A DNA stretch of 64,000 nucleotides. It comes from a virus. Its lineage: Duplodnaviria > Heunggongvirae > Uroviricota > Caudoviricetes. Of this stretch, positions 35,409 through 60,556 are shown piece by piece. A model generated the notes under the pieces. The model was not told the origin of the DNA. It worked only from the letters and a program-made list of their open reading frames with translations, and did not search any database. The stretch's first letter is position 1. Each line of letters opens with the position of its first letter. The position numbers and the translations under genes were made by a program. The stretch lies in IMG/VR virus record IMGVR_UViG_3300044678_002996, positions 17,301-81,300 of that record. One strand, given 5' to 3'.

Positions 35409-36713
35409 TTAAGATAAATCTTCGGGGTCAACAAATCCAACCTGCTCTTGGGCCAGACCGGCCAAAAGCTTATAGTCATACGACTTATTCTTGAATACAG
35501 TCCAGTGGGCGCCGTTTGCCCGGACACATACGCCTTCACGAATATGGCGGAAGCACACAGTAGAAGGGCCATCAGATAAGAATCTTACACGGGTGACCAA
35601 TTTCTCTAGGTCACCATCATATTTGAATCGCTCAATTACTGGGCAATACTTAATACCGTGGGCCGCACACCACGCTGTGATGTCATCCCAAGGGAGGTCT
35701 ACTTCGGAACCGTCATCCAGCACGTAGGAAATGCGATATACATAAACATCGAATTCCCCAGATGGTATGCCGTAGGTGTAGACCATTGATTCACCGTATT
35801 GCTTACGGAGATCCTTATCAGTAACCTTTTGGCGAGGAGCGATTGTCTTCTGGTCCTCATATCCCACAACCTCGAAGTAAACCTGCATTTGAGGCTTGAG
35901 GTATGGGGTTATGCGATCAGCCACTTTCTTTCTCCAAGATTCGGAGAAATATCCGCCCGACGATTTATCAGTCAGGATAGTGCGTCGCGTACCGTTATAT
36001 TTTCGGAGAACACGATTATCAATCTTAAAGAAGCGAGACAGAAGTTTCTCGATAATAGTTAGTGGGCGGAGTTCGTAGCCCCACGCTACTCGTTGTGAGG
36101 TTCCTTCCATCTTCTCTGTTATGACAATGTCGTCTCCGACTTTGAACTTATGGGCATTCTTTAAGAAGTGATTAGTATCCTTATGCTCTGGAAAGATATG
36201 GACAGGTTTGTCTTTCCCAAAGAATCGGATCTTCAGCTTTTCTAAAAAGCCTTTTGGCTTCTTTCGTGACTCTCGTTGTTTAGCCCGAAGTTGTTCGGGC
36301 GATTCGTACTTACAACAGATTGGTATATCCTGTATTGTATCTACGTAATCGCCCTCTGACAACTTGGATATGTCCACCCCAGCTTTTTCCAGATAAGAAA
36401 GAGGTGCCCAAAAACCATAGCTCTTAATGCCCTGAAATGTTTGGGCCCGCACCTTGCGATTCGCATCAAACATCCCGCCCAGATTCTTGCCAGTTTCCGG
36501 GCATTTGCGACGGATTAAGTCGTTTGCCAGACATAACTCTGGCGAAAGCTGTAAGTCGCAAGAGAAGTAAATGCCCAATGTATTATCTAGGCACGACTTG
36601 CTCACAATTACTGTCTCCCCACATACTTCCCCAACAGCCAGAGAATGTACCTCTGGGTTAGGGTGTGGTGTTACTTTTACTCGGGCAATTATTCCGCTAT
36701 GGTTTTCAGACAT
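35409..36713 (-). CDS. ATP-dependent RNA/DNA ligase-family nucleotidyltransferase (Rnl2-like core with N-terminal extension)
   Basis: Motif I ITEKMEGTS (compare Rnl2 KIHGTN). Motif IV-like EGVCVRA. Motif V-like FKNKSYDYK. Confidence 0.45.
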   Translation of the reverse strand: MSENHSGIIARVKVTPHPNPEVHSLAVGEVCGETVIVSKSCLDNTLGIYFSCDLQLSPELCLANDLIRRKCPETGKNLGGMFDANRKVRAQTFQGIKSYGFWAPLSYLEKAGVDISKLSEGDYVDTIQDIPICCKYESPEQLRAKQRESRKKPKGFLEKLKIRFFGKDKPVHIFPEHKDTNHFLKNAHKFKVGDDIVITEKMEGTSQRVAWGYELRPLTIIEKLLSRFFKIDNRVLRKYNGTRRTILTDKSSGGYFSESWRKKVADRITPYLKPQMQVYFEVVGYEDQKTIAPRQKVTDKDLRKQYGESMVYTYGIPSGEFDVYVYRISYVLDDGSEVDLPWDDITAWCAAHGIKYCPVIERFKYDGDLEKLVTRVRFLSDGPSTVCFRHIREGVCVRANGAHWTVFKNKSYDYKLLAGLAQEQVGFVDPEDLS

Positions 36714-45353: not shown

Positions 45354-46951
45354 TCTAATCTCCCCCTTATTTCGCCCAAAGTAGTTTTGTTAAACTGCAC
45401 GCCATTTTCAAACATAACTTTCAACTCACCACCAAGTTCTTCCTCAGGTGTGCAATCATTCTTAAGGGTTAGTTTTCCACCCTTATCTTTGACTACAGCA
45501 AGCAAGCCCTTCGCAGATTTTTTATGGCCACCTGTTTTAGGATCTTTGAAGATAGGCTTAGCCTTCCCATCAATTTCCACATAGGTAGCCTTACAGGCGA
45601 TACTGAAAGTATCACGAGTATTGTACTGGTATGTGTAAGATCCCACGCCGAATACTACGTTTGTGGATGCGAAACCCTTGTGTTTCAACCGATCACAAAT
45701 TTGTTCACATCGAGTGAAAGTAATACTGTCACCATAAATTAGCCCAATATGTGGATCTAATTCAAGATACCCCTTTGAGTTTTTGGTCGCCCCAAAGGTT
45801 TCAGCAAGGATCTGAATAGAGCCCTTCACTTCATCCTCAGTAAGTTCTTGACAGGTTATATCAAAATACTTATTATCTGATGTTTTAACAGCGTCGAAGG
45901 TCTCGGTGCCGTCGTTATTCCACAACTTAATATGGAACGGAGTTCTTCTTACCAACTGAAGATAATCGTCAGAGGTTTGTTTTACATTCTTAACAATGTA
46001 CCCAGTCACAATCTTAACTGGGTCACCGCTGTCGGGCCGAATTACGACCTTACCATTACGGGCCATAATCTTAGATTTAAGGGCCGGTAAGATTTTCTTA
46101 AGGACGTTCCAGTAATCCCATGTATCACTTACGATGGACACAATACCCGCAGGATACACATCCTCAATAATTCTGCGGAATGTTTCTTCTTCTGATTCAT
46201 CCCCACCCGCACACATTACACTGTGTTCAGTAGCTGGTACACTACATCCCACCAATTCTTCGTCGATATTCGCCCCGTAGAATTCCTCAAGGAACTCAAT
46301 AGCTGAGACTGTATCCGTCCCGACGAAACTTAGTAGGTGGGCTGCCCCACTAACGTATCCAGTTTCAACGCTACTCATTCCCCGCATGGAGAAGTCGTGG
46401 CACTGGAAATTAACAAACGGGCAGTTGTCGGAAGTCTCAGCGGCGTACTTGGATACCAACTTCTTAAACTGATGGGCGATAGTGGCTGACACGATAGCTT
46501 GCCACATTACCGTCTGAGTCAAGGTTTCGAGGAAGTTCGTGACCCAATAGAATTCATGCTTTGTGTTCACGATTGTCATGAACGGCACTTGAATTGGGCA
46601 CAATGTTCCTTCGGGCAAAGCCTTCAGGCGAATTGGCAAGTAGCCCAAATCGTGCAGACTTTCCATAGTCTTTGTGCTTACTGAGTCTTTGCCAGTAACA
46701 GCGTCCATCATTCGCTTGAATTTTGCAACAACCTTCTCTTTCGGCTGAGAGAAGAACCGCTCATTCCAGTTACGAATGAAGTATTCCTCAACCAGATATT
46801 GCGTGCCGAACACTACGATTGAATCCACGCCTTCCATTCGCGACGAGCGAGCGGTAGTATTGGAATACACCACTTGCGTCTTTGCAGGGTATTGTGGCGG
46901 GTGAGAGAACTTGTATACGTCGGCGAGTAGTTGTGGACTTGGTTTGAACAT
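45350..46951 (-). CDS. nadV: nicotinamide phosphoribosyltransferase (NAMPT/NadV)
   Basis: N-terminal ADVYKFSHPPQYP matches the NAMPT DSYKxTHxxQYP block. 533 aa, typical NadV length. Confidence 0.75.
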   Translation of the reverse strand: MFKPSPQLLADVYKFSHPPQYPAKTQVVYSNTTARSSRMEGVDSIVVFGTQYLVEEYFIRNWNERFFSQPKEKVVAKFKRMMDAVTGKDSVSTKTMESLHDLGYLPIRLKALPEGTLCPIQVPFMTIVNTKHEFYWVTNFLETLTQTVMWQAIVSATIAHQFKKLVSKYAAETSDNCPFVNFQCHDFSMRGMSSVETGYVSGAAHLLSFVGTDTVSAIEFLEEFYGANIDEELVGCSVPATEHSVMCAGGDESEEETFRRIIEDVYPAGIVSIVSDTWDYWNVLKKILPALKSKIMARNGKVVIRPDSGDPVKIVTGYIVKNVKQTSDDYLQLVRRTPFHIKLWNNDGTETFDAVKTSDNKYFDITCQELTEDEVKGSIQILAETFGATKNSKGYLELDPHIGLIYGDSITFTRCEQICDRLKHKGFASTNVVFGVGSYTYQYNTRDTFSIACKATYVEIDGKAKPIFKDPKTGGHKKSAKGLLAVVKDKGGKLTLKNDCTPEEELGGELKVMFENGVQFNKTTLGEIRGRLE

Positions 46952-46960
46952 TTCAAATTC

Positions 46961-47440
46961 CTATGGATGAACGAGATGAACTTTGGTTACGAATGGTAGA
47001 AGGTTGGCTAACGCCCGTGGGCCGTTTTTAGCCTTTTCTTTGATTACTTCGGCCCCAACAGATTGAGGGCGACCTTTATCTCTTTCGATACAGAGATATT
47101 CATCCGCTGTGAATACTACTAACTCAATATCATAAAGAGGGTCAAAATTAACAGCAACTTGCGTGAAGATTTCGAGTGAGTATTTGTTGTTAATGCTACC
47201 TGTGTCGAACACTATGAGCTTACGCCCATCTTTTAGGGCCGCGAAGACCCGCTCCTTTGCCTCTTGCACAGCCCGCTTGTAGAATTCCCCATGTTTTTCA
47301 TGAGTATATCCCGGATAAGACTCCTTGATTTTATCGGCTGAGATGATGTATTCTTCATCATAATGCTCCTGAAGCCACGTACTTTTACCAGCCGCTGGTA
47401 AACCAAAGGTACAAACAAATTTAGCCATCGCACTTTCCAA
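46961..47440 (-). CDS. P-loop kinase (polynucleotide-kinase/AAA_33-like kinase domain)
   Basis: FGLPAAGKSTWLQEHYDEEYIISADKIK resembles the T4 Pnk kinase-domain N-terminus (GCPGSGKSTWA...NRDD). Confidence 0.45.
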   Translation of the reverse strand: MESAMAKFVCTFGLPAAGKSTWLQEHYDEEYIISADKIKESYPGYTHEKHGEFYKRAVQEAKERVFAALKDGRKLIVFDTGSINNKYSLEIFTQVAVNFDPLYDIELVVFTADEYLCIERDKGRPQSVGAEVIKEKAKNGPRALANLLPFVTKVHLVHP

Positions 47441-47690
47441 CTTCTATGAATTGTACTGTTGTGTAAGTTCTTGTGGGAATTACGATTTCTTTGCCGTCAA
47501 GTAGGAAGATCTCAGTGCCTTTGTCGCCCCAACCCATATACTCGGCCCCAAAGTATGAGAACGAGCGGTCTTGACAACAAGCCATGATATGCTTTACAAC
47601 GTGATCAGAAGTGTGGCAGATACATTTACATGGATAATTAGGATCCACATAGATTATATCATATCTGTGTTTTGTCTTTAGGTGTTCCAC
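47421..47690 (-). CDS. hypothetical Cys/His-rich small protein
   Basis: 89-aa ORF. Confidence 0.3.
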   Translation of the reverse strand: MEHLKTKHRYDIIYVDPNYPCKCICHTSDHVVKHIMACCQDRSFSYFGAEYMGWGDKGTEIFLLDGKEIVIPTRTYTTVQFIEVGKCDG

Positions 47691-48448
47691 ACCCGTCCCT
47701 TTCGAGTGTAAATCTGTTGGTAATGACCCAAAAGGGCCCCTAACCCTTGTGAGAATATTCCATGACTTACATAAAGGATCAGCTTATTGGGACCGCAGTG
47801 GGCGACTGCTTTCGCCACCTCGATGAATGTACGTCCTCCGTCGCACAGGTCGTCGCATACGAGAATGTTTTTCCCAAAAGGTATGTTGGGTACGATAGTC
47901 TCAAGAATATGTCCAGTAGCCTCGTCGCGTATTTTCTCTGCGACGATGAATTCTTTGGCGGACAATTGTGAGTATCTCGCCGCCGCCCCTTTGTCGGGCA
48001 ATAGCAGAAGGTCAATTCCCTCGCGTTCGACAATGTCCGCAATATTCTGTTGTGGCAGTGTGTTCACCAACTTAATATTGCGGTATTGGTCGAAGAACGC
48101 AGGATTGTGGACGTCGAACGTATGAAGTTCACATTTGCCCATCATCTCAGCAAAGAAATGTAGAGCCCAGCAAGATGTGTTTACAATACCTTTATCCTGC
48201 CTCGCGTAAGGAAGATATGGGACGTCCCAGATAACTAGCTGGTTGGCGGGTTCCTTTATCTTCATCCTTTCTACGAAGTAGAGCAGTTGGAAGATGTGCA
48301 GCAACTCATACTCGTCCTCAAATTCCCAGTGAATTCGCAGTACGTCTTCCTTAAAGGCATTTAGTAGCCCTTCGGGCTGTTTCCAGACTTGAGATGTCTT
48401 ATCTGGAAATCTTGTAACGTTCAGAGTAAATCCGTTTATATGTATCAT
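47678..48448 (-). CDS. type I phosphoribosyltransferase-fold protein, PRPP-synthetase-like (Prs/Adps-like)
   Basis: PRPP-binding loop ILVCDDLCDGGRTF. Length 256 aa. Adjacent to nadV. Confidence 0.55.
   Translation of the reverse strand: MIHINGFTLNVTRFPDKTSQVWKQPEGLLNAFKEDVLRIHWEFEDEYELLHIFQLLYFVERMKIKEPANQLVIWDVPYLPYARQDKGIVNTSCWALHFFAEMMGKCELHTFDVHNPAFFDQYRNIKLVNTLPQQNIADIVEREGIDLLLLPDKGAAARYSQLSAKEFIVAEKIRDEATGHILETIVPNIPFGKNILVCDDLCDGGRTFIEVAKAVAHCGPNKLILYVSHGIFSQGLGALLGHYQQIYTRKGRVWNT
47951..47969 (-). repeat. co-oriented motif copy TTTGGCGGACAATTGT
   Basis: Inside the Prs-like gene. Encodes QLSAKEF. Confidence 0.45.
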
Positions 48449-53435: not shown

Positions 53436-53866
53436 TGGACTCTAAGCCTTTCGAACGTTAGGTGAAGTTCTAGCATCTCTTCTATGGCGTTTACCAACTG
53501 ATCCAAAGAATGGAACTTGACATCCTTATCATTGATCAGTTCCAATAATCTTTCTGGGGATGTGCCGGTCTTTGTGAAAAAATCAAAGATTGAGGCGACG
53601 TGTTCAGGCTTCACCAATTGGTCGTTCAGCATATTCCGGCGGGGAATGTCTGCGTGTGTTCGGGCGTCTGTTTTAAGCCCGCCCGCGATGTCTTTACGCC
53701 ACAAACGTCGAGTACGAGCAGTGTACTTATACTCTGGGAGCTTACCTGCTAGCTCTTCCACTCTTTTTTGTAGGTGTATTAGACTTGTCCTGTCACCCAG
53801 TTCTCCCAACGCAACGAAGATGGCCTGTTTAAGTTTCATCAAGCACTCCCTCTTTCTACAGTACAA
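53432..53866 (-). CDS. hypothetical protein
   Basis: 144-aa ORF. Confidence 0.4.
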   Translation of the reverse strand: MYCRKRECLMKLKQAIFVALGELGDRTSLIHLQKRVEELAGKLPEYKYTARTRRLWRKDIAGGLKTDARTHADIPRRNMLNDQLVKPEHVASIFDFFTKTGTSPERLLELINDKDVKFHSLDQLVNAIEEMLELHLTFERLRVQ

Positions 53867-54141
53867 AGCTTACAAACGACTGTTCTCTTGTGTGCCTGAA
53901 ACATATTCTGGCAAATACAACACTGATTCCAATAATTGCCATTCTCATGGGAGAAGTCTTCAGGCCAATTTCTTGAGAGCACTTCCCCATTGATAATCAG
54001 AATGGACATCGCTGGGAATTCCTCAATAGGTGGGACTTCATTGAGGATCGTTAGATGGCTGTATTCGGCGATCACTTCTTTTGCGGACAAACGCCTGATG
54101 TAAGGGGCATCATTATGTCGAATAATACAGATCACGGGCAC
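53839..54141 (-). CDS. hypothetical protein with C-terminal CxxC pairs
   Basis: 100 aa with CCICQN...CKLC. Confidence 0.35.
   Translation of the reverse strand: MPVICIIRHNDAPYIRRLSAKEVIAEYSHLTILNEVPPIEEFPAMSILIINGEVLSRNWPEDFSHENGNYWNQCCICQNMFQAHKRTVVCKLCTVERGSA
54078..54092 (-). repeat. co-oriented motif copy TTTTGCGGACAAACG
   Basis: Inside the gene 53839..54141. Encodes RLSAKEV. Confidence 0.4.
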
Positions 54142-55082
54142 GCTCCACAGGGAGTATGGAGAATTGGCAATCCCGCCCCAACTGAAGGGCGAACTAATTC
54201 TGGATTATCTTTCATCCATTGTTGTACGAACCATAATTGCCCACAACCACCGCCCACATCATCTTGCCCAGCGGGGTCGAAGACTCTTACATTATATCCA
54301 GCGTCCAACATCTTGGAGCTGAAATTTGTGGCTAATTCCCGCTGATGGTCATTCTTAGCGGGTAAGCCTTCATTACGCTCACAGATCACACTAATAGTGC
54401 ATTCCCAAATATTTGGGTCAAATTGAGCTTGTAGCCGTGCAACATCTTCATCAGATGTATTGTCGTCCGCCGCACAATAGTTGAAGAAAGGTTTACGCCC
54501 TGTAGCCATTCGCCACATAAATCCCTCATAACCAATGTTATTAAGAGATAGTTTGGCTTTAAACGGGATGAGCTTATTCCGCTCTTCATCAGTAGATTTG
54601 TGGACAGAAAACTGCAGGCCTACAGTTGGGACATCAATTGACAACCTGCGAAGTGGGTCGTAATCAATATCTGGTCCGATTGTACTAATCAACAAAGCTG
54701 CATTGGGGTACTTACTGTATAGTACCCGTATGGCGATTTCAAGATTCTTGAAGTTGAGTAGAGGCTCGCCCATACTCATAAACATAATCTGCAATCGCCC
54801 CATTGACAGTGGGTCTACTCCAGTTTGCCCAATTGAGTAGTCCACTTGTTCAACAATTTCGTCCGCTGTAAGGGATCTTACAAAAGCATCCCCTGCCCCG
54901 CAAAATCTGCATCCCACAGGGCATCCAGATTGCGTTGAACAACAGATAACAGTCCGCGTGGCGTAATCGGGGTACTTGTAGAGTACACTTTCTGCCACAG
55001 CATTATCCTTGGTATACACAAATTTGCACACCGAGGATTCTGAACTGTCAATACGCTTGATATCATTCCAATAAGTAAGCAT
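54132..55082 (-). CDS. rlmN: radical SAM enzyme, RlmN/Cfr-like RNA methyltransferase
   Basis: CCSTQSGCPVGCRFCGAG gives the CxxxCxxC cluster in an RlmN-like context (RlmN SSQVGCxxxCxFC). MSMGEPL matches RlmN MGMGEPL. Confidence 0.65.
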   Translation of the reverse strand: MLTYWNDIKRIDSSESSVCKFVYTKDNAVAESVLYKYPDYATRTVICCSTQSGCPVGCRFCGAGDAFVRSLTADEIVEQVDYSIGQTGVDPLSMGRLQIMFMSMGEPLLNFKNLEIAIRVLYSKYPNAALLISTIGPDIDYDPLRRLSIDVPTVGLQFSVHKSTDEERNKLIPFKAKLSLNNIGYEGFMWRMATGRKPFFNYCAADDNTSDEDVARLQAQFDPNIWECTISVICERNEGLPAKNDHQRELATNFSSKMLDAGYNVRVFDPAGQDDVGGGCGQLWFVQQWMKDNPELVRPSVGAGLPILHTPCGACP

Positions 55083-55095
55083 TATGTTTGTCCTG

Positions 55096-55470
55096 TTATT
55101 CTAAATACAGAATTCTAAGCTTAAGAATAGAACAGAGGGCGTTTAATTCACTGACTGTTTTGGGCGTCATTGATTGGGGTAACACGCCAATAGGCGTTAT
55201 TCTCACCTCAGACCAATCATTGATTATTATGCATCCCTCATCGCTAACGGCGTAAACCAAACACTTTGAGGGGATAGCTTCCATCACACCCCGTGAAGTA
55301 TTTTGCCATTCAGCATTTGGGAAAAGCTTAAGGTAGTCGGGGAAAACTTCGCATTGGCAATCTTCTTTTTTGATTTTCCCTGTGCCTTTGCACAATGTGC
55401 ATTTATGGCGAACCCACATTCTTATTACCCCACTCAGCGGGAACCGCTGGAATATCATTGATTGGGACAA
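55096..55470 (-). CDS. hypothetical Cys-rich protein
   Basis: 124 aa with CTLCKGTG...CQC. Confidence 0.35.
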   Translation of the reverse strand: MSQSMIFQRFPLSGVIRMWVRHKCTLCKGTGKIKKEDCQCEVFPDYLKLFPNAEWQNTSRGVMEAIPSKCLVYAVSDEGCIIINDWSEVRITPIGVLPQSMTPKTVSELNALCSILKLRILYLE

Positions 55471-58106: not shown

Positions 58107-58108
58107 AA

Positions 58109-58136
58109 GTGGACCCGGCGGGAATTGAACCCGCGT
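58109..58136 (-). other. tRNA 3'-half fragment (T-arm + 3' acceptor strand) lacking a 5' partner
   Basis: GCGGG-TTCAATT-CCCGC followed by CGGGTCCA. No matching 5' acceptor strand within tRNA distance. Confidence 0.3.
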
Positions 58137-58341
58137 CTTGCATAAAAAAGAGCAATAGATTCGTTCACAAGTTTAGGGGCGAACGCCCCGGTTCAAGTGG
58201 ATATTACAGAACGTCCTCAATTTGGATAACAGGGCAATGAGGGGCCCCGAGACTATGCAGCCTGAGCAAAAGTTTTTGCTTTTATTTTTTAATCGACTTT
58301 TAAAGTGGCCGGTCGATCAACCACTACCTGCATCTATTACA

Positions 58342-58746
58342 CTATTTACCAATCAATACCTGTCGGGCCCGTGGTGGCACTTTGTCTGCCTTTTCAAGAT
58401 TACATAATTCACATAACACTTGTCTATTATCTGAAGAGTCTTTCCCTTCTCTTGCTATAGGAATTATATGGTCAACTGTCATAGCGACCAAATCTGCGGA
58501 GACTATCATAATACTCGGAAGAGACTTGTTAGTTCGTGGTTTGCCCACAAATATATAGTCGCCTCTACGAGGGCAATAAGAACATTTAGCCCCCATATTG
58601 ACCACCTGTTTGATTCTCCTTAATTTCCTTCCAAGTGATAGTTCACGAAATACTGCGATATCAAACGGGATTATTCTGTAATCAGAATATTTGATTAACA
58701 GATCAATTTCGGAAGAAAATAGGTTGTCGATACAAGTATTGTCCAT
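58342..58746 (-). CDS. HNH endonuclease
   Basis: CSYCPRRG...VDHIIPIAREGKDSSDNRQVLCELCN (HNH with Zn-ligand cysteines). Confidence 0.7.
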   Translation of the reverse strand: MDNTCIDNLFSSEIDLLIKYSDYRIIPFDIAVFRELSLGRKLRRIKQVVNMGAKCSYCPRRGDYIFVGKPRTNKSLPSIMIVSADLVAMTVDHIIPIAREGKDSSDNRQVLCELCNLEKADKVPPRARQVLIGK

Positions 58747-58748
58747 CT

Positions 58749-59204
58749 CTATTTCCTGAAGTGATTACGCCTTAAGGACATCAAACATTCACCCAACAAG
58801 TTTGTGCCCCACTTTGCTTTGTTCGCGAGGGCATCTTTGGCGGCGAACCCAATACCCAAAATTTTATCTGTGGGCGACGCTTCTACTAGGACTTCATCTT
58901 TCTTGAACGACTCTTCGAGGGCAACCCGGAACTCTTCACACGCACTGAACTTAATCTCAAGGGCAAACATCATTGAGGGGATCTTGAGGTCATCCCATTT
59001 CTCTTCTGAGAAGTTTCTGACCGATCGCCCTGCGTTCTTCGCGTCACGCGGAGTTGGGGCAACTCTTATGTTTTGGAGTGCCACTATGTCGTGGAATGCA
59101 GCCCCTTTGAGGGCCATAAAGATTTTCTCAGAAGTGAAAGCCTCGTTACCATTGATAGGGTGAAAGTTTGAGAAAACTCCGCCCCAGAAGAATTTGTAGT
59201 TCAT
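58749..59204 (-). CDS. NADAR/YbiA-like (DUF1768) domain protein
   Basis: FFWGGVFSNFHP...FTSEKIFMALKG matches the NADAR N-terminal signature. Confidence 0.6.
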   Translation of the reverse strand: MNYKFFWGGVFSNFHPINGNEAFTSEKIFMALKGAAFHDIVALQNIRVAPTPRDAKNAGRSVRNFSEEKWDDLKIPSMMFALEIKFSACEEFRVALEESFKKDEVLVEASPTDKILGIGFAAKDALANKAKWGTNLLGECLMSLRRNHFRK

Positions 59205-60040: not shown

Positions 60041-60556
60041 CTAGCTGTATAGCTCAAAGATATCAAGGGCCAGATTTCTCAGCTCTTGTTCAAGCTCCAC
60101 GTCAACTCCAGTAAGACACTCGTCTAACAGAAGAATAGATTCCTTGGCGTAGACAATAGCGAATCCGTCGCTTTCGGGCATTTCGTAGAGGTTATCAATT
60201 CGGTCGATTAGCTTAACAAGCTTTGATTCCGTCCGAATACCCTTGATTTTTTCCCGATTAGCTTTCTTTCGTTCAGCCCGATTGCCTTTGACATCTTTGT
60301 CGTTAGTGAGGTCTTCTACATATCCCTCTACTATGTGCCCAAAACAGAGGGCGATTTCAGACAGTTTTACACCGCAGTCTTCTACAACATCATGCAGAAA
60401 GGCCGCTGCTACCAATTGATTTGTAGCCATCCCATGAGTAGCTACGCGGCCCGCGACGCGAATCGGGTGTGTAATGTAGGGCCTGTTACTGTATTTACGC
60501 TTTTGCCCTTTGTGTTTTTCGGCGGCAAATTGGGCTGCATCAATGATTAATTCCAT
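60041..60556 (-). CDS. HD-domain small alarmone hydrolase ((p)ppGpp hydrolase, SpoT/Mesh1-like)
   Basis: AEKHKGQKRKYSNRPYITHPIRVA...AAAFLHDVVED matches the RelA/SpoT HD hydrolase N-terminus (HxGQxR...PYIxHP...HDxxED). Confidence 0.65.
   Translation of the reverse strand: MELIIDAAQFAAEKHKGQKRKYSNRPYITHPIRVAGRVATHGMATNQLVAAAFLHDVVEDCGVKLSEIALCFGHIVEGYVEDLTNDKDVKGNRAERKKANREKIKGIRTESKLVKLIDRIDNLYEMPESDGFAIVYAKESILLLDECLTGVDVELEQELRNLALDIFELYS

Follow-up and report, generated by a model that had tools for sequence, protein, structure and literature searches.

A predicted phage radical-SAM methyl synthase related to RlmN and Cfr lacks their RNA-binding domain and belongs to a family often linked to NAD+/ADP-ribose genes

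Introduction

RlmN is a dual-specificity methyl synthase that forms m2A2503 in 23S rRNA and m2A37 in tRNA, and Cfr is a 23S rRNA methyl synthase that forms m8A2503 and gives resistance to the phenicol, lincosamide, oxazolidinone, pleuromutilin, and streptogramin A (PhLOPSA) antibiotics. To our knowledge, these two enzymes are the only characterised class A radical S-adenosylmethionine (SAM) methylases, and their targets are the same RNA adenosines. Here, we analyse a relative of both, a predicted radical-SAM (rSAM) protein of 316 amino acids encoded by a virus of the Caudoviricetes (IMG/VR record IMGVR_UViG_3300044678_002996). The whole stretch of DNA that was analysed, 64,000 nt of that record, is called the window, and the 316-amino-acid protein is called the query. 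An initial annotation had read the gene as a phage-encoded RlmN/Cfr-like enzyme that could retune host ribosomes or tRNAs or be carried as a resistance gene.

In both described enzymes, an HhH2 N-terminal domain (NTD) holds L-shaped RNA; it anchors helix H91 in Cfr, which corresponds to the acceptor stem of tRNA bound by RlmN (PMC13001441). The structure of Cfr explains the choice between C8 and C2 by a 180-degree flip of the adenine and gives no single-residue determinants (PMC13001441). Beyond RlmN and Cfr, the phylogeny of Kaminska 2009 names only an additional small subfamily with unknown function.

The second set of described systems that bears on this locus is the NARP pathways of phages, which reconstitute nicotinamide adenine dinucleotide (NAD+). 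NARP1, defined as Adps plus Namat, occurs in 4.3% of phage genomes and NARP2 in approximately 1.1% (10.1101/2024.02.11.579819). An rSAM gene is not among the described components of NARP1, NARP2, or NARP3.

Results

The query has the fold and the catalytic residues of a class A methyl synthase

The open reading frame (ORF) and both motifs quoted in the initial annotation were recovered exactly: the minus-strand ORF, the CxxxCxxC string QSGCPVGCRFCGAG, which spans residues 51–64 and contains the cluster cysteines C54, C58, and C61, and MSMGEPL (Table 1). Pfam returned only a generic Radical_SAM match (36.9 bits). The best NCBIfam matches were all RlmN/Cfr models (E 2.5e-25 to 2.7e-14), with the RlmN model TIGR00048 at E 2.5e-25 and the Cfr models at E 1e-20 to 2e-22, and sequence matches in the PDB were exclusively RlmN/Cfr chains (E 1e-17 to 1e-12). 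An AlphaFold 2 (AF2) model built from 35 family sequences (pLDDT 92.1, pTM 0.91) consists of a partial TIM-barrel radical-SAM core with a beta-sheet extension, as in RlmN and Cfr. When it was compared with the PDB by Foldseek, the 11 best matches were all RlmN/Cfr-type chains (E 1e-19 to 3e-13, TM 0.59–0.74), and RlmN itself (PDB: 3RFA, 5HR7) was matched at E 7e-18 to 1e-19. The next fold, viperin, was matched at E 8e-7, weaker by twelve orders of magnitude. Cfr (PDB: 9P0P, and the cryo-EM complex of Cfr with an 87-mer RNA, PMC13001441) likewise has this catalytic core and fold.

Residue alignment equates query C47 with the resolving cysteine (RlmN C118, Cfr C105), C280 with the methyl-carrying cysteine (RlmN C355, Cfr C338), and C54/C58/C61 with E. 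coli RlmN C125/C129/C132; C118 and C355 follow E. coli RlmN numbering, and residues given below with Cfr numbers refer to Cfr. In an alignment of 13 sequences that includes four RlmN and three Cfr proteins (alignment A1), the invariant positions are C47, C54, C58, C61, C280, E31, M-x-x-G-E-P, S133, S159/H161, R168, Y202, N208, and CGQL. The query therefore has the cluster motif, methyl-carrier cysteine, and resolving cysteine that define the class A methyl synthases, together with the GEP, S-x-H, and CGQL motifs of RlmN. Conservation was then assessed in 93 proteins, comprising 80 longer representatives (at least 265 amino acids) from the representative search described below and 13 references. 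All five cysteines are present in 70 of the 93: 19 NTD-containing proteins and 51 NTD-less proteins that diverge to approximately 27% identity and retain the SAM-binding motifs.

Because 51 such divergent proteins keep the five cysteines and the SAM-binding motifs, purifying selection has probably acted on the full methyl-synthase chemistry, and because the cysteine pair, cluster motif, GEP, S-x-H, and CGQL are retained, the same ping-pong chemistry is presumed. By sequence and predicted fold, the 316-amino-acid protein is assigned to the RlmN/Cfr (class A radical-SAM methyl synthase) superfamily and is predicted to be an intact, active methyl synthase, with fold, [4Fe-4S] and SAM motifs, and both catalytic cysteines in place. 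To this extent, the initial annotation of a phage-encoded RlmN/Cfr-like radical-SAM enzyme was borne out (E 2.5e-25 by sequence, 1e-19 by fold, with phage gene families in the window); the best matches were to RlmN and Cfr rather than to an unrelated radical-SAM family, and the C-terminal catalytic cysteine C280 is present along with C47.

Loss of the RNA-binding domain and RNA contacts separates the query from RlmN and Cfr

Scores against the models that define the two enzymes fell far below their cut-offs: 89.2 bits against 290 for TIGR00048, 53–74 bits against 422–633 for the other RlmN equivalog models, and 79.9 against 530 and 73.6 against 550 for the Cfr models (NF000424/TIGR04432). The query is 21–23% identical to RlmN and slightly closer to Cfr (25–27%), with which it has in common a tyrosine at Cfr position 97 and an aromatic residue at Cfr position 252.

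The NCBIfam matches begin at profile position 72–74 or thereabouts, which means that the first 70 or so residues of RlmN and Cfr are missing, and in alignment A1 the query and all of its close relatives begin right after the approximately 70-residue HhH2 NTD. The ORF cannot be extended in frame at its 5' end. A split gene with the NTD encoded upstream was ruled out, as no RlmN N-terminal domain match was found there and the upstream ORF has no Pfam match. A small conserved partner that replaces the NTD was also rejected: neither the 100-amino-acid Cys-rich ORF nor the 124-amino-acid ORF that flank the gene downstream and upstream, respectively, has a Pfam match, a PADLOC match, or a BLAST counterpart in other loci, and across the compared loci no protein that might provide RNA binding is consistently encoded next to the rSAM gene. 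N-terminal extensions seen in P0122, P0124, P0129, P0199, and several bacterial loci lack any Pfam domain and probably reflect ORF calls that start too far upstream.

Every protein-RNA contact given for the Cfr-87-mer complex (PMC13001441) was mapped onto the alignment. None of the NTD contacts is present in the query. The residues that contact helix H90 (Cfr S182, R184, and R185) are replaced by Pro, A128, and A129, and those that contact the ribose and phosphate of the target adenosine A2503 (Cfr S103, S153, N288, and R327) are replaced by V45, Met, S231 (in some alignments the neighbouring Thr), and F268. Cfr position 328, which is Lys or Arg in RlmN (where 185 is Arg or His), is Asp in the query. 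These replacements follow the presence or absence of the NTD. Among the 19 NTD-containing proteins, R327 is found in 19, N288 in 18 (Asp in the other), S/T103 in 18, and a basic residue at 184 in 17; among the 51 NTD-less proteins, position 327 is Phe in 40, position 288 is mostly Thr or Lys, position 103 is mostly Val, and position 184 is mostly non-basic, most commonly Ala (18/51).

Eight core positions are basic in at least 70% of the RlmN/Cfr proteins. The NTD-less clade keeps three of them (Cfr K79, R128, and R221), none of which contacts RNA, and loses R184, R185, R249, K250, and R327, which are exactly the RNA contacts; the query's own subfamily retains R196 and K197 at Cfr positions 249 and 250. 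The query is also acidic, with an isoelectric point (pI) of 4.95 and a net charge of -9, compared with pI 6.6–8.9 and charges of -1 to +8 for the RlmN/Cfr references; the median pI of its 120 closest relatives is 5.5.

In a neighbour-joining tree of the 51 NTD-less and 19 RlmN/Cfr proteins, built from core columns only so that the NTD was excluded, the NTD-less proteins and RlmN plus Cfr formed an exact bipartition in 82 of 100 bootstraps. The query lies at a distance of 2.2–2.3 from RlmN and 1.8 from Cfr, which are themselves 1.1–1.2 apart. The protein is thus placed by its sequence as neither RlmN nor Cfr; it appears to belong to a phage-borne sister clade of RlmN plus Cfr that has neither the RNA-binding domain nor the conserved RNA contacts. 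No call between C2 and C8 is made for the query because the Cfr structure paper names no residues that determine regiochemistry.

These results run counter to the functions first suggested for the gene. The phylogenetic check placed it outside both the RlmN and the Cfr clade, and retuning of the host ribosome through A2503 is disfavoured by the low model scores, the missing HhH2 NTD, and the replacement of otherwise invariant RNA and ribose contacts. Cfr-type resistance cargo fares no better (80 bits against 530): no resistance genes accompany the family, and the sampled cfr plasmids do not carry it.

NTD-less rSAM genes are preferentially linked to NAD+/ADP-ribose modules

Gene neighbourhoods were compared for 80 viral loci (10 kb on either side of the rSAM gene), the window, and five reference loci. 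ORFs were clustered by all-against-all BLASTP, spurious antisense ORFs were set aside, and loci with anchor proteins at least 95% identical were merged, leaving 73 distinct groups. The commonest neighbour was an NMN adenylyltransferase-Nudix cluster of the NatV/NadM type, which includes a Nudix-NrtR variant (19/73 groups), followed by NAMPT/NadV (18/73, at a median distance of about 0.4–0.5 kb). Macro-domain genes were found in 10 groups, NADAR and nucleoside deoxyribosyltransferase (NDT)-like genes in 7 each, and RNA ligase and 5'-3' exonuclease genes in 6 each; apart from these last two, every one of these clusters encodes NAD+/ADP-ribose or nucleotide enzymes. The NMNAT, NAMPT, and Macro genes were invariably on the same strand as the rSAM gene. 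NAMPT lay within 2 kb of it in 15 of 18 groups (binomial p 1.4e-8 against uniform placement) and has the tightest linkage of the recurrent neighbours, and any NAD+/ADP-ribose (ADPR) gene lay within 10 kb in 29 of the 73 groups and within 1.5 kb in 20.

Linkage is kept although gene order is shuffled: the arrangements include NMNAT-NAMPT-rSAM, NMNAT-rSAM-NAMPT, rSAM-NAMPT-NMNAT, rSAM-NAMPT, and NAMPT-rSAM. NAMPT and NMNAT occur together, as a NARP2-type pair, in 15 of 73 groups, compared with the approximately 1.1% of phage genomes reported to have NARP2. Conversely, 80 loci anchored on a NARP2-type NAMPT contained NMNAT in 78 cases, Macro in 38, and rSAM in 8, and in those eight the rSAM gene is inside the operon (for example, NMNAT-rSAM-Macro-NAMPT in L139). 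A copy that is just 26% identical to the query occupies the same operon slot in L130. Adjacency to NARP1-type genes was also seen, as Prs-like-NAMPT-rSAM in Vibrio phage 496E54-1, rSAM-Prs-like-NAMPT in L228, and Prs-like-rSAM in L265, and in L231 the stop codon of the rSAM gene is overlapped by a Nudix-NrtR gene. These data show that the NTD-less clade is preferentially linked to phage NAD+/ADPR modules. The rSAM genes are co-oriented with the NARP1 and NARP2 pathway genes and their Macro, NADAR, and Nudix accessories and are often inside the operons. The window itself has a NADAR gene, which falls in the cluster found in 7 groups, and a NARP1-type pair, which lies 5.7–9.7 kb downstream of the rSAM gene with about a dozen small genes between (Table 1). 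An AAA_33 kinase that weakly resembles the kinase domain of bacterial Pnkp is encoded between the NAMPT-like and Prs-like genes of the window (46961–47428).

Two fusion proteins were found. In P0140, an NTD-less rSAM domain 43% identical to the query is joined to a C-terminal Nudix domain, and the gene is followed directly by NAPRTase-family and NMNAT genes. In P0222 (L014:724–3003), a divergent NTD-less rSAM domain is fused to a dGTPase-type HD domain; the context looks bacterial, and a DUF7768 gene follows. A reading of P0140 as a domain swap with the ADP-ribose pyrophosphatase of NatV was rejected, as its Nudix domain weakly matches MutT, NudI, and RppH and matches NatV only at the Nudix box. 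A further gene, L267:1720–3357, encodes a divergent NTD-less RlmN-like domain with a C-terminal region of approximately 250 residues that has no Pfam match.

A nucleotide of, or derived from, the NAD+/ADP-ribose pool is the proposed substrate

Because the grip on RNA has been lost and the gene is recurrently embedded in NAD+/ADPR clusters, the substrate is inferred to be something other than A2503 or A37 and to be linked to NAD+ or ADPR. We propose that the enzyme C-methylates the adenine of a nucleotide in, or derived from, the NAD+/ADPR pool, as a facultative aid to the phage in countering host immunity that consumes NAD+, and give this a probability of roughly 0.45, somewhat short of even. 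As in RlmN and Cfr, one SAM would methylate C280. A second SAM, cleaved at the cluster held by C54/C58/C61, would give a 5'-deoxyadenosyl radical that would abstract a hydrogen from the S-methyl group of C280, and the resulting methylene radical would attack C2 or C8 of the adenine ring. C47 would then resolve the covalent adduct to leave C-methyl adenine. Candidate substrates would be NAD+, ADPR, an ADPR-derived signal, a (d)NTP, or an RNA 5' end, and not 23S A2503 or tRNA A37. A broader proposal, that the NTD-less proteins would be the first class A methyl synthases to act on something other than rRNA or tRNA by C-methylating the adenine of a nucleotide, whether free or conjugated (NAD+, ADP-ribose, an immune signal that is ADPR-derived or an oligoadenylate, or dATP/DNA), is tentative; it is possible, with the odds against it.

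If this broader proposal is right, phages would gain a chemical means to disarm or evade NAD+- and nucleotide-based immunity in the form of an unrecognised NARP accessory. Its recurrence inside clusters of NAD+-reconstitution, Macro, NADAR, and Nudix genes places the family in the arms race over NAD+ between phages and bacteria, and the family could reveal a new substrate class for this chemistry or a new mechanism of counter-defence.

Several observations weigh against a substrate in the NAD+/ADPR pool. RlmN-type enzymes are slow, which disfavours bulk conversion of an abundant metabolite, and the known chemistry of the NARP pathways offers no evident role for a C-methylase. Conserved basic residues are few in the clade, which is unexpected for a polyphosphate ligand too. 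The linkage is facultative: approximately 60% of the viral groups have no NAD+/ADPR gene within 10 kb, so that most family members are without NAD genes nearby, and in the bacterial-genome set such a gene lies near the rSAM gene in 8 of 63 loci (none in 87%). Seen from the other side, rSAM occurs in 8 of the 80 NARP2 loci (about 10%), and of 21 loci chosen for a NAMPT closely related to that of the window, none has it nearby. The nearest NAD+/ADPR genes in the window are 3.7 kb and 5.7–7.2 kb away, not adjacent, and islands of unrelated counter-defence genes could yield part of the linkage without a common substrate. Finally, RNA is the substrate of all superfamily members that have been characterised (PMC13001441).

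This last point also favours the best-surviving alternative, in which the enzyme would methylate an RNA adenine in another RNA or by another mode of recognition (the tRNA anticodon loop, tmRNA, or the 5' end of an mRNA or NAD-capped RNA), as repair or immunisation against host ribonucleases or RNA-ADP-ribosylating defences. The query's subfamily keeps R196 and K197 (Cfr R249 and K250) and the Cfr-like residues Y37 and F199, which would fit such a role, and Hen1, which marks repaired RNA, offers an analogy. The genomic context can be read in the same way: in Stenotrophomonas phage ANB28 the rSAM homologue lies within a tRNA cluster; genes for tRNA-Tyr, tmRNA, tRNA-Gln, and tRNA-Lys lie 2–7 kb upstream of the rSAM gene in the window, which also encodes an Rnl1-type RNA ligase; RNA ligase genes recur in the 6 groups noted above; and the Nudix domain of P0140 is weakly similar to RppH-type RNA pyrophosphohydrolases as well as to MutT. 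Macro and NADAR domains, for their part, also act in NAD-dependent RNA repair (PMC7824862). However, the domain that binds the acceptor stem or H91 is missing, the basic core contacts are lost, the protein is acidic, and no conserved RNA-binding partner was found. Proximity to tRNA genes is also no guide, since 22 of 60 rSAM loci have a tRNA or tmRNA within 10 kb, as do 21 of 60 rSAM-negative NARP2 control loci, with no recurring tRNA identity or anticodon; tRNA proximity was rejected as a specific signal on this basis, and together with the missing HhH2 NTD this leaves the initial suggestion of tRNA methylation unsupported. We regard an RNA substrate as doubtful.

Methylation at C2 or C8 of a DNA adenine, or of dATP/dAMP, as a new phage DNA modification against restriction or DNA-targeting defences, is fairly unlikely. 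Replacement of the Cfr contacts to the ribose 2'-OH/3'-O and phosphate (S103, S153, N288, and R327) by V, M, S/T, and F is compatible with a 2'-deoxy substrate. The fusions to a dGTPase-type HD domain and a MutT-like Nudix domain and the NDT-like neighbours in 7 of 73 groups could point the same way, as could the Bradyrhizobium-type prophage copies in a replication/recombination module, the usual place of orphan DNA methylases. Against this, we know of no such DNA base. The gene is sporadic and accessory, unlike DNA hypermodification pathways, which are conserved within a clade, and no dATP-clearing, kinase, or polymerase module is conserved among its neighbours. Moreover, the enzyme class is slow and spends two SAM per methyl group, the protein is acidic, and the P0222 fusion is in a bacterial-looking context.

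A working RlmN/Cfr analogue that acts on 23S A2503 (C2 or C8), tRNA A37, or both, and so retunes translation or gives PhLOPSA-type resistance, would account for the conserved catalytic residues, for RlmN and Cfr being the best-scoring families and folds, for the slightly greater similarity to Cfr, and for the A2503-methyltransferase name given by public pipelines. The evidence that separates the clade from both enzymes, set out above (89 against 290 and 80 against 530 bits, a position outside both clades, and loss of the NTD and the invariant RNA contacts), makes this reading, including 23S A2503 methylation as resistance cargo, unlikely. Host RlmN already modifies C2 of A2503 in most bacteria, the hosts of the family range over Gram-negatives, Actinobacteria, Firmicutes, and Saccharibacteria, and the genes have no resistance-gene context, with matches in the sampled plasmids all below 33% identity. 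Lastly, the protein could be a decayed or repurposed radical-SAM protein without methylase activity in vivo (for example, a factor that consumes SAM or binds proteins, non-catalytic or with another radical reaction). In favour of this, at least one catalytic cysteine is missing from some aligned clade members, although several of these are fragments. It is nevertheless very improbable: the five cysteines persist in 70 of 93 aligned proteins, including the 51 divergent NTD-less ones, and the family has thousands of members.

The family is widespread in phages, rare in bacterial genomes, and inconsistently named

A word-indexed search returned 5,405 homologues with E <= 1e-5. Each of the best 120 is approximately 310 amino acids long, and many are on contigs of 100–350 kb. 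An exhaustive search of representatives gave 84 clusters (50% identity) at E <= 1e-30, in which full-length RlmN/Cfr-type proteins appeared only near 100 bits. Homologues of 50–60% identity are carried by isolated Stenotrophomonas, Xanthomonas, Vibrio, Salmonella, and Aeromonas phages. The isolates that carry the family include Stenotrophomonas phages ANB28 and BUCTxx99, Xanthomonas phage JGB6, a group of Vibrio phages of approximately 137 kb, Salmonella phage Arash, and Aeromonas phage Ahp1. Less similar proteins without the NTD are encoded by crAss-like phages and by phages of Pectobacterium, Bacteroides, and Pseudomonas, among them the jumbo phage 201phi2-1. Bacterial genomes seldom contain the family, with 77 loci among 185,579 species, scattered over Proteobacteria, Actinobacteria, Firmicutes, Bacteroidota, and Saccharibacteria; the Bradyrhizobium copy lies inside an evident prophage replication module. 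At the search sensitivity used, matches in the sampled plasmids were true cfr/rlmN genes or unannotated stretches, all less than 33% identical to the query. The NTD-less proteins would thus make up a third, very large class A clade of thousands of sequences, with hosts from Proteobacteria to Saccharibacteria, in which an unusual chemistry appears to have been kept and the substrate site rebuilt.

Public names for the homologues, which include records PQ434692.1, OR529408.1, and OQ436456.1 and JGI gene calls, are inconsistent: "23S rRNA (adenine2503-C2)-methyltransferase," "ribosomal RNA large subunit methyltransferase N," "RlmN," "radical SAM protein," "putative radical SAM protein, partial," and "prohibitin family protein." The sequence comparisons with the RlmN and Cfr families do not support those names that denote an rRNA methyltransferase. 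The literature searched (phage radical-SAM/RlmN, NARP2, NadV, and anti-defense) contained no paper that describes this phage family, and no characterised member of the NTD-less family was found in the libraries and literature searched. The family is therefore already in databases, yet uncharacterised and mislabelled, and the A2503 methyltransferase label applied by pipelines would wrongly imply ribosome modification or Cfr-like resistance potential in viromes.

The rSAM gene lies in the early-gene arm of a lytic phage

Table 1. Coordinates of the rSAM gene, its motifs, and the NAD+/ADP-ribose genes of the window
Feature	Position	Strand	Basis
Predicted NTD-less RlmN/Cfr-superfamily radical-SAM methyl synthase gene, 316 aa	54132..55082	-	ATG-started ORF, NCBIfam matches, AF2 model, Foldseek
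Codons from C47 to the C54-x3-C58-x2-C61 [4Fe-4S] motif	54900..54944	-	Alignment to E. coli RlmN 3rf9; invariant columns
MSMGEPL, residues 102–108, GEP-type SAM-binding motif common to RlmN/Cfr	54759..54779	-	M102, G105, E106 invariant in phage family, RlmN, and Cfr
GGGCGQL, residues 277–283, containing C280	54234..54254	-	C280, G281, Q282, L283 invariant
AGGA Shine-Dalgarno, 8 nt 5' of the ATG (55080–55082)	55091..55094	-	Read from sequence
NADAR-domain gene, 3.7 kb upstream of rSAM	58749..59204	-	Pfam NADAR; context only
NAMPT/Namat-like gene, 7.2 kb downstream of rSAM	45350..46951	-	phrog_448, E 2e-198; context only
Prs/Adps-like gene, NARP1-type pair with the NAMPT-like gene	47678..48448	-	phrog_619, E 1e-50, Pribosyltran; context only

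The gene lies within a long run of co-directional minus-strand genes, in the early-gene arm of a lytic phage of approximately 109 kb; a metagenomic contig of 108,868 bp carries an identical protein. The window encodes both ribonucleotide reductase subunits, the NAMPT-like and Prs-like proteins, the Rnl1-type RNA ligase, and a glycosyltransferase, and has five tRNA genes and a tmRNA. The presence of these and other PHROG families, together with the tRNAs and the tmRNA, supports a phage origin. No close nucleotide-level relative of the 52–58 kb region of the window was found among GenBank phages.

The preceding (upstream) ORF ends with a stop codon at 55096–55098, and no promoter or terminator signal around the rSAM gene exceeded shuffled (chance) expectation. 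Downstream, the 100-amino-acid Cys-rich ORF, a candidate gene (53839–54141, minus strand; CCICQ...CKLC), overlaps the end of the rSAM gene, stop codon included, by 10 nt, an arrangement that suggests coupled translation; no shared counterpart was recovered in the compared loci. Neither this ORF nor the upstream one gave a match in Pfam or PADLOC, and PADLOC models of known defence and anti-defence systems gave zero matches at the locus.

Two other minus-strand genes of the window stand apart from these subjects. The 670-amino-acid protein encoded at 37115–39127 (phrog_1735, E 7e-222) has relatives of approximately 43% identity in more than 500 large phages of Gram-positive and Gram-negative hosts, some of which are recorded as a galactose-binding domain protein. 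At 60041–60556, a 171-amino-acid protein consists of a stand-alone RelA/SpoT-type HD hydrolase domain (TIGR00691, E 1.7e-21) and covers the N-terminal hydrolase region only; it resembles a small alarmone hydrolase and may be a possible counter to host (p)ppGpp/(p)ppApp responses.

RNA genes and RNA repair genes recur in the window and in the compared loci

The Rnl1-type RNA ligase of the window (35409–36713, minus strand; phrog_968, E 1.5e-40), the kinase, and the tRNA genes together suggest tRNA-repair capacity in this phage. The tmRNA (58107–58370, minus strand) scored 71.5 bits against the Rfam RF00023 gathering score of 47, and ARAGORN gave its tag peptide as AKTFAQAA*; an HNH-endonuclease ORF (58342–58746) adjoins or overlaps the 5' end of the tmRNA gene. 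By ARAGORN alone, permuted tmRNAs were also called in many of the rSAM and NARP2 loci (for example, L047, L050, L145, L157, L168, L174, L183, L185, L188, and L132).

Unusual anticodons were seen as well. A tRNA-like gene at 1386–1459 of the window (minus strand; ARAGORN, with an Rfam tRNA score of 32 bits) has the 4-nt anticodon "ttca" in an 8-nt loop, and similar 4-nt anticodons ("ttca" and "tgaa") occur in two unrelated rSAM loci (L089:11500–11573 and L063:4469–4544); the window gene could be a UGA or frameshift-suppressor tRNA. Genes for amber-suppressor-type tRNAs (anticodon CUA), which ARAGORN labels tRNA-Pyl, were called at L040:14585–14658, L058:2815–2887, and L071:2014–2088 and in L153, L157, L180, L184, L185, and L188. 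They recur in phage loci that carry NARP2 operons, which hints at stop-codon suppression or recoding in those phages.

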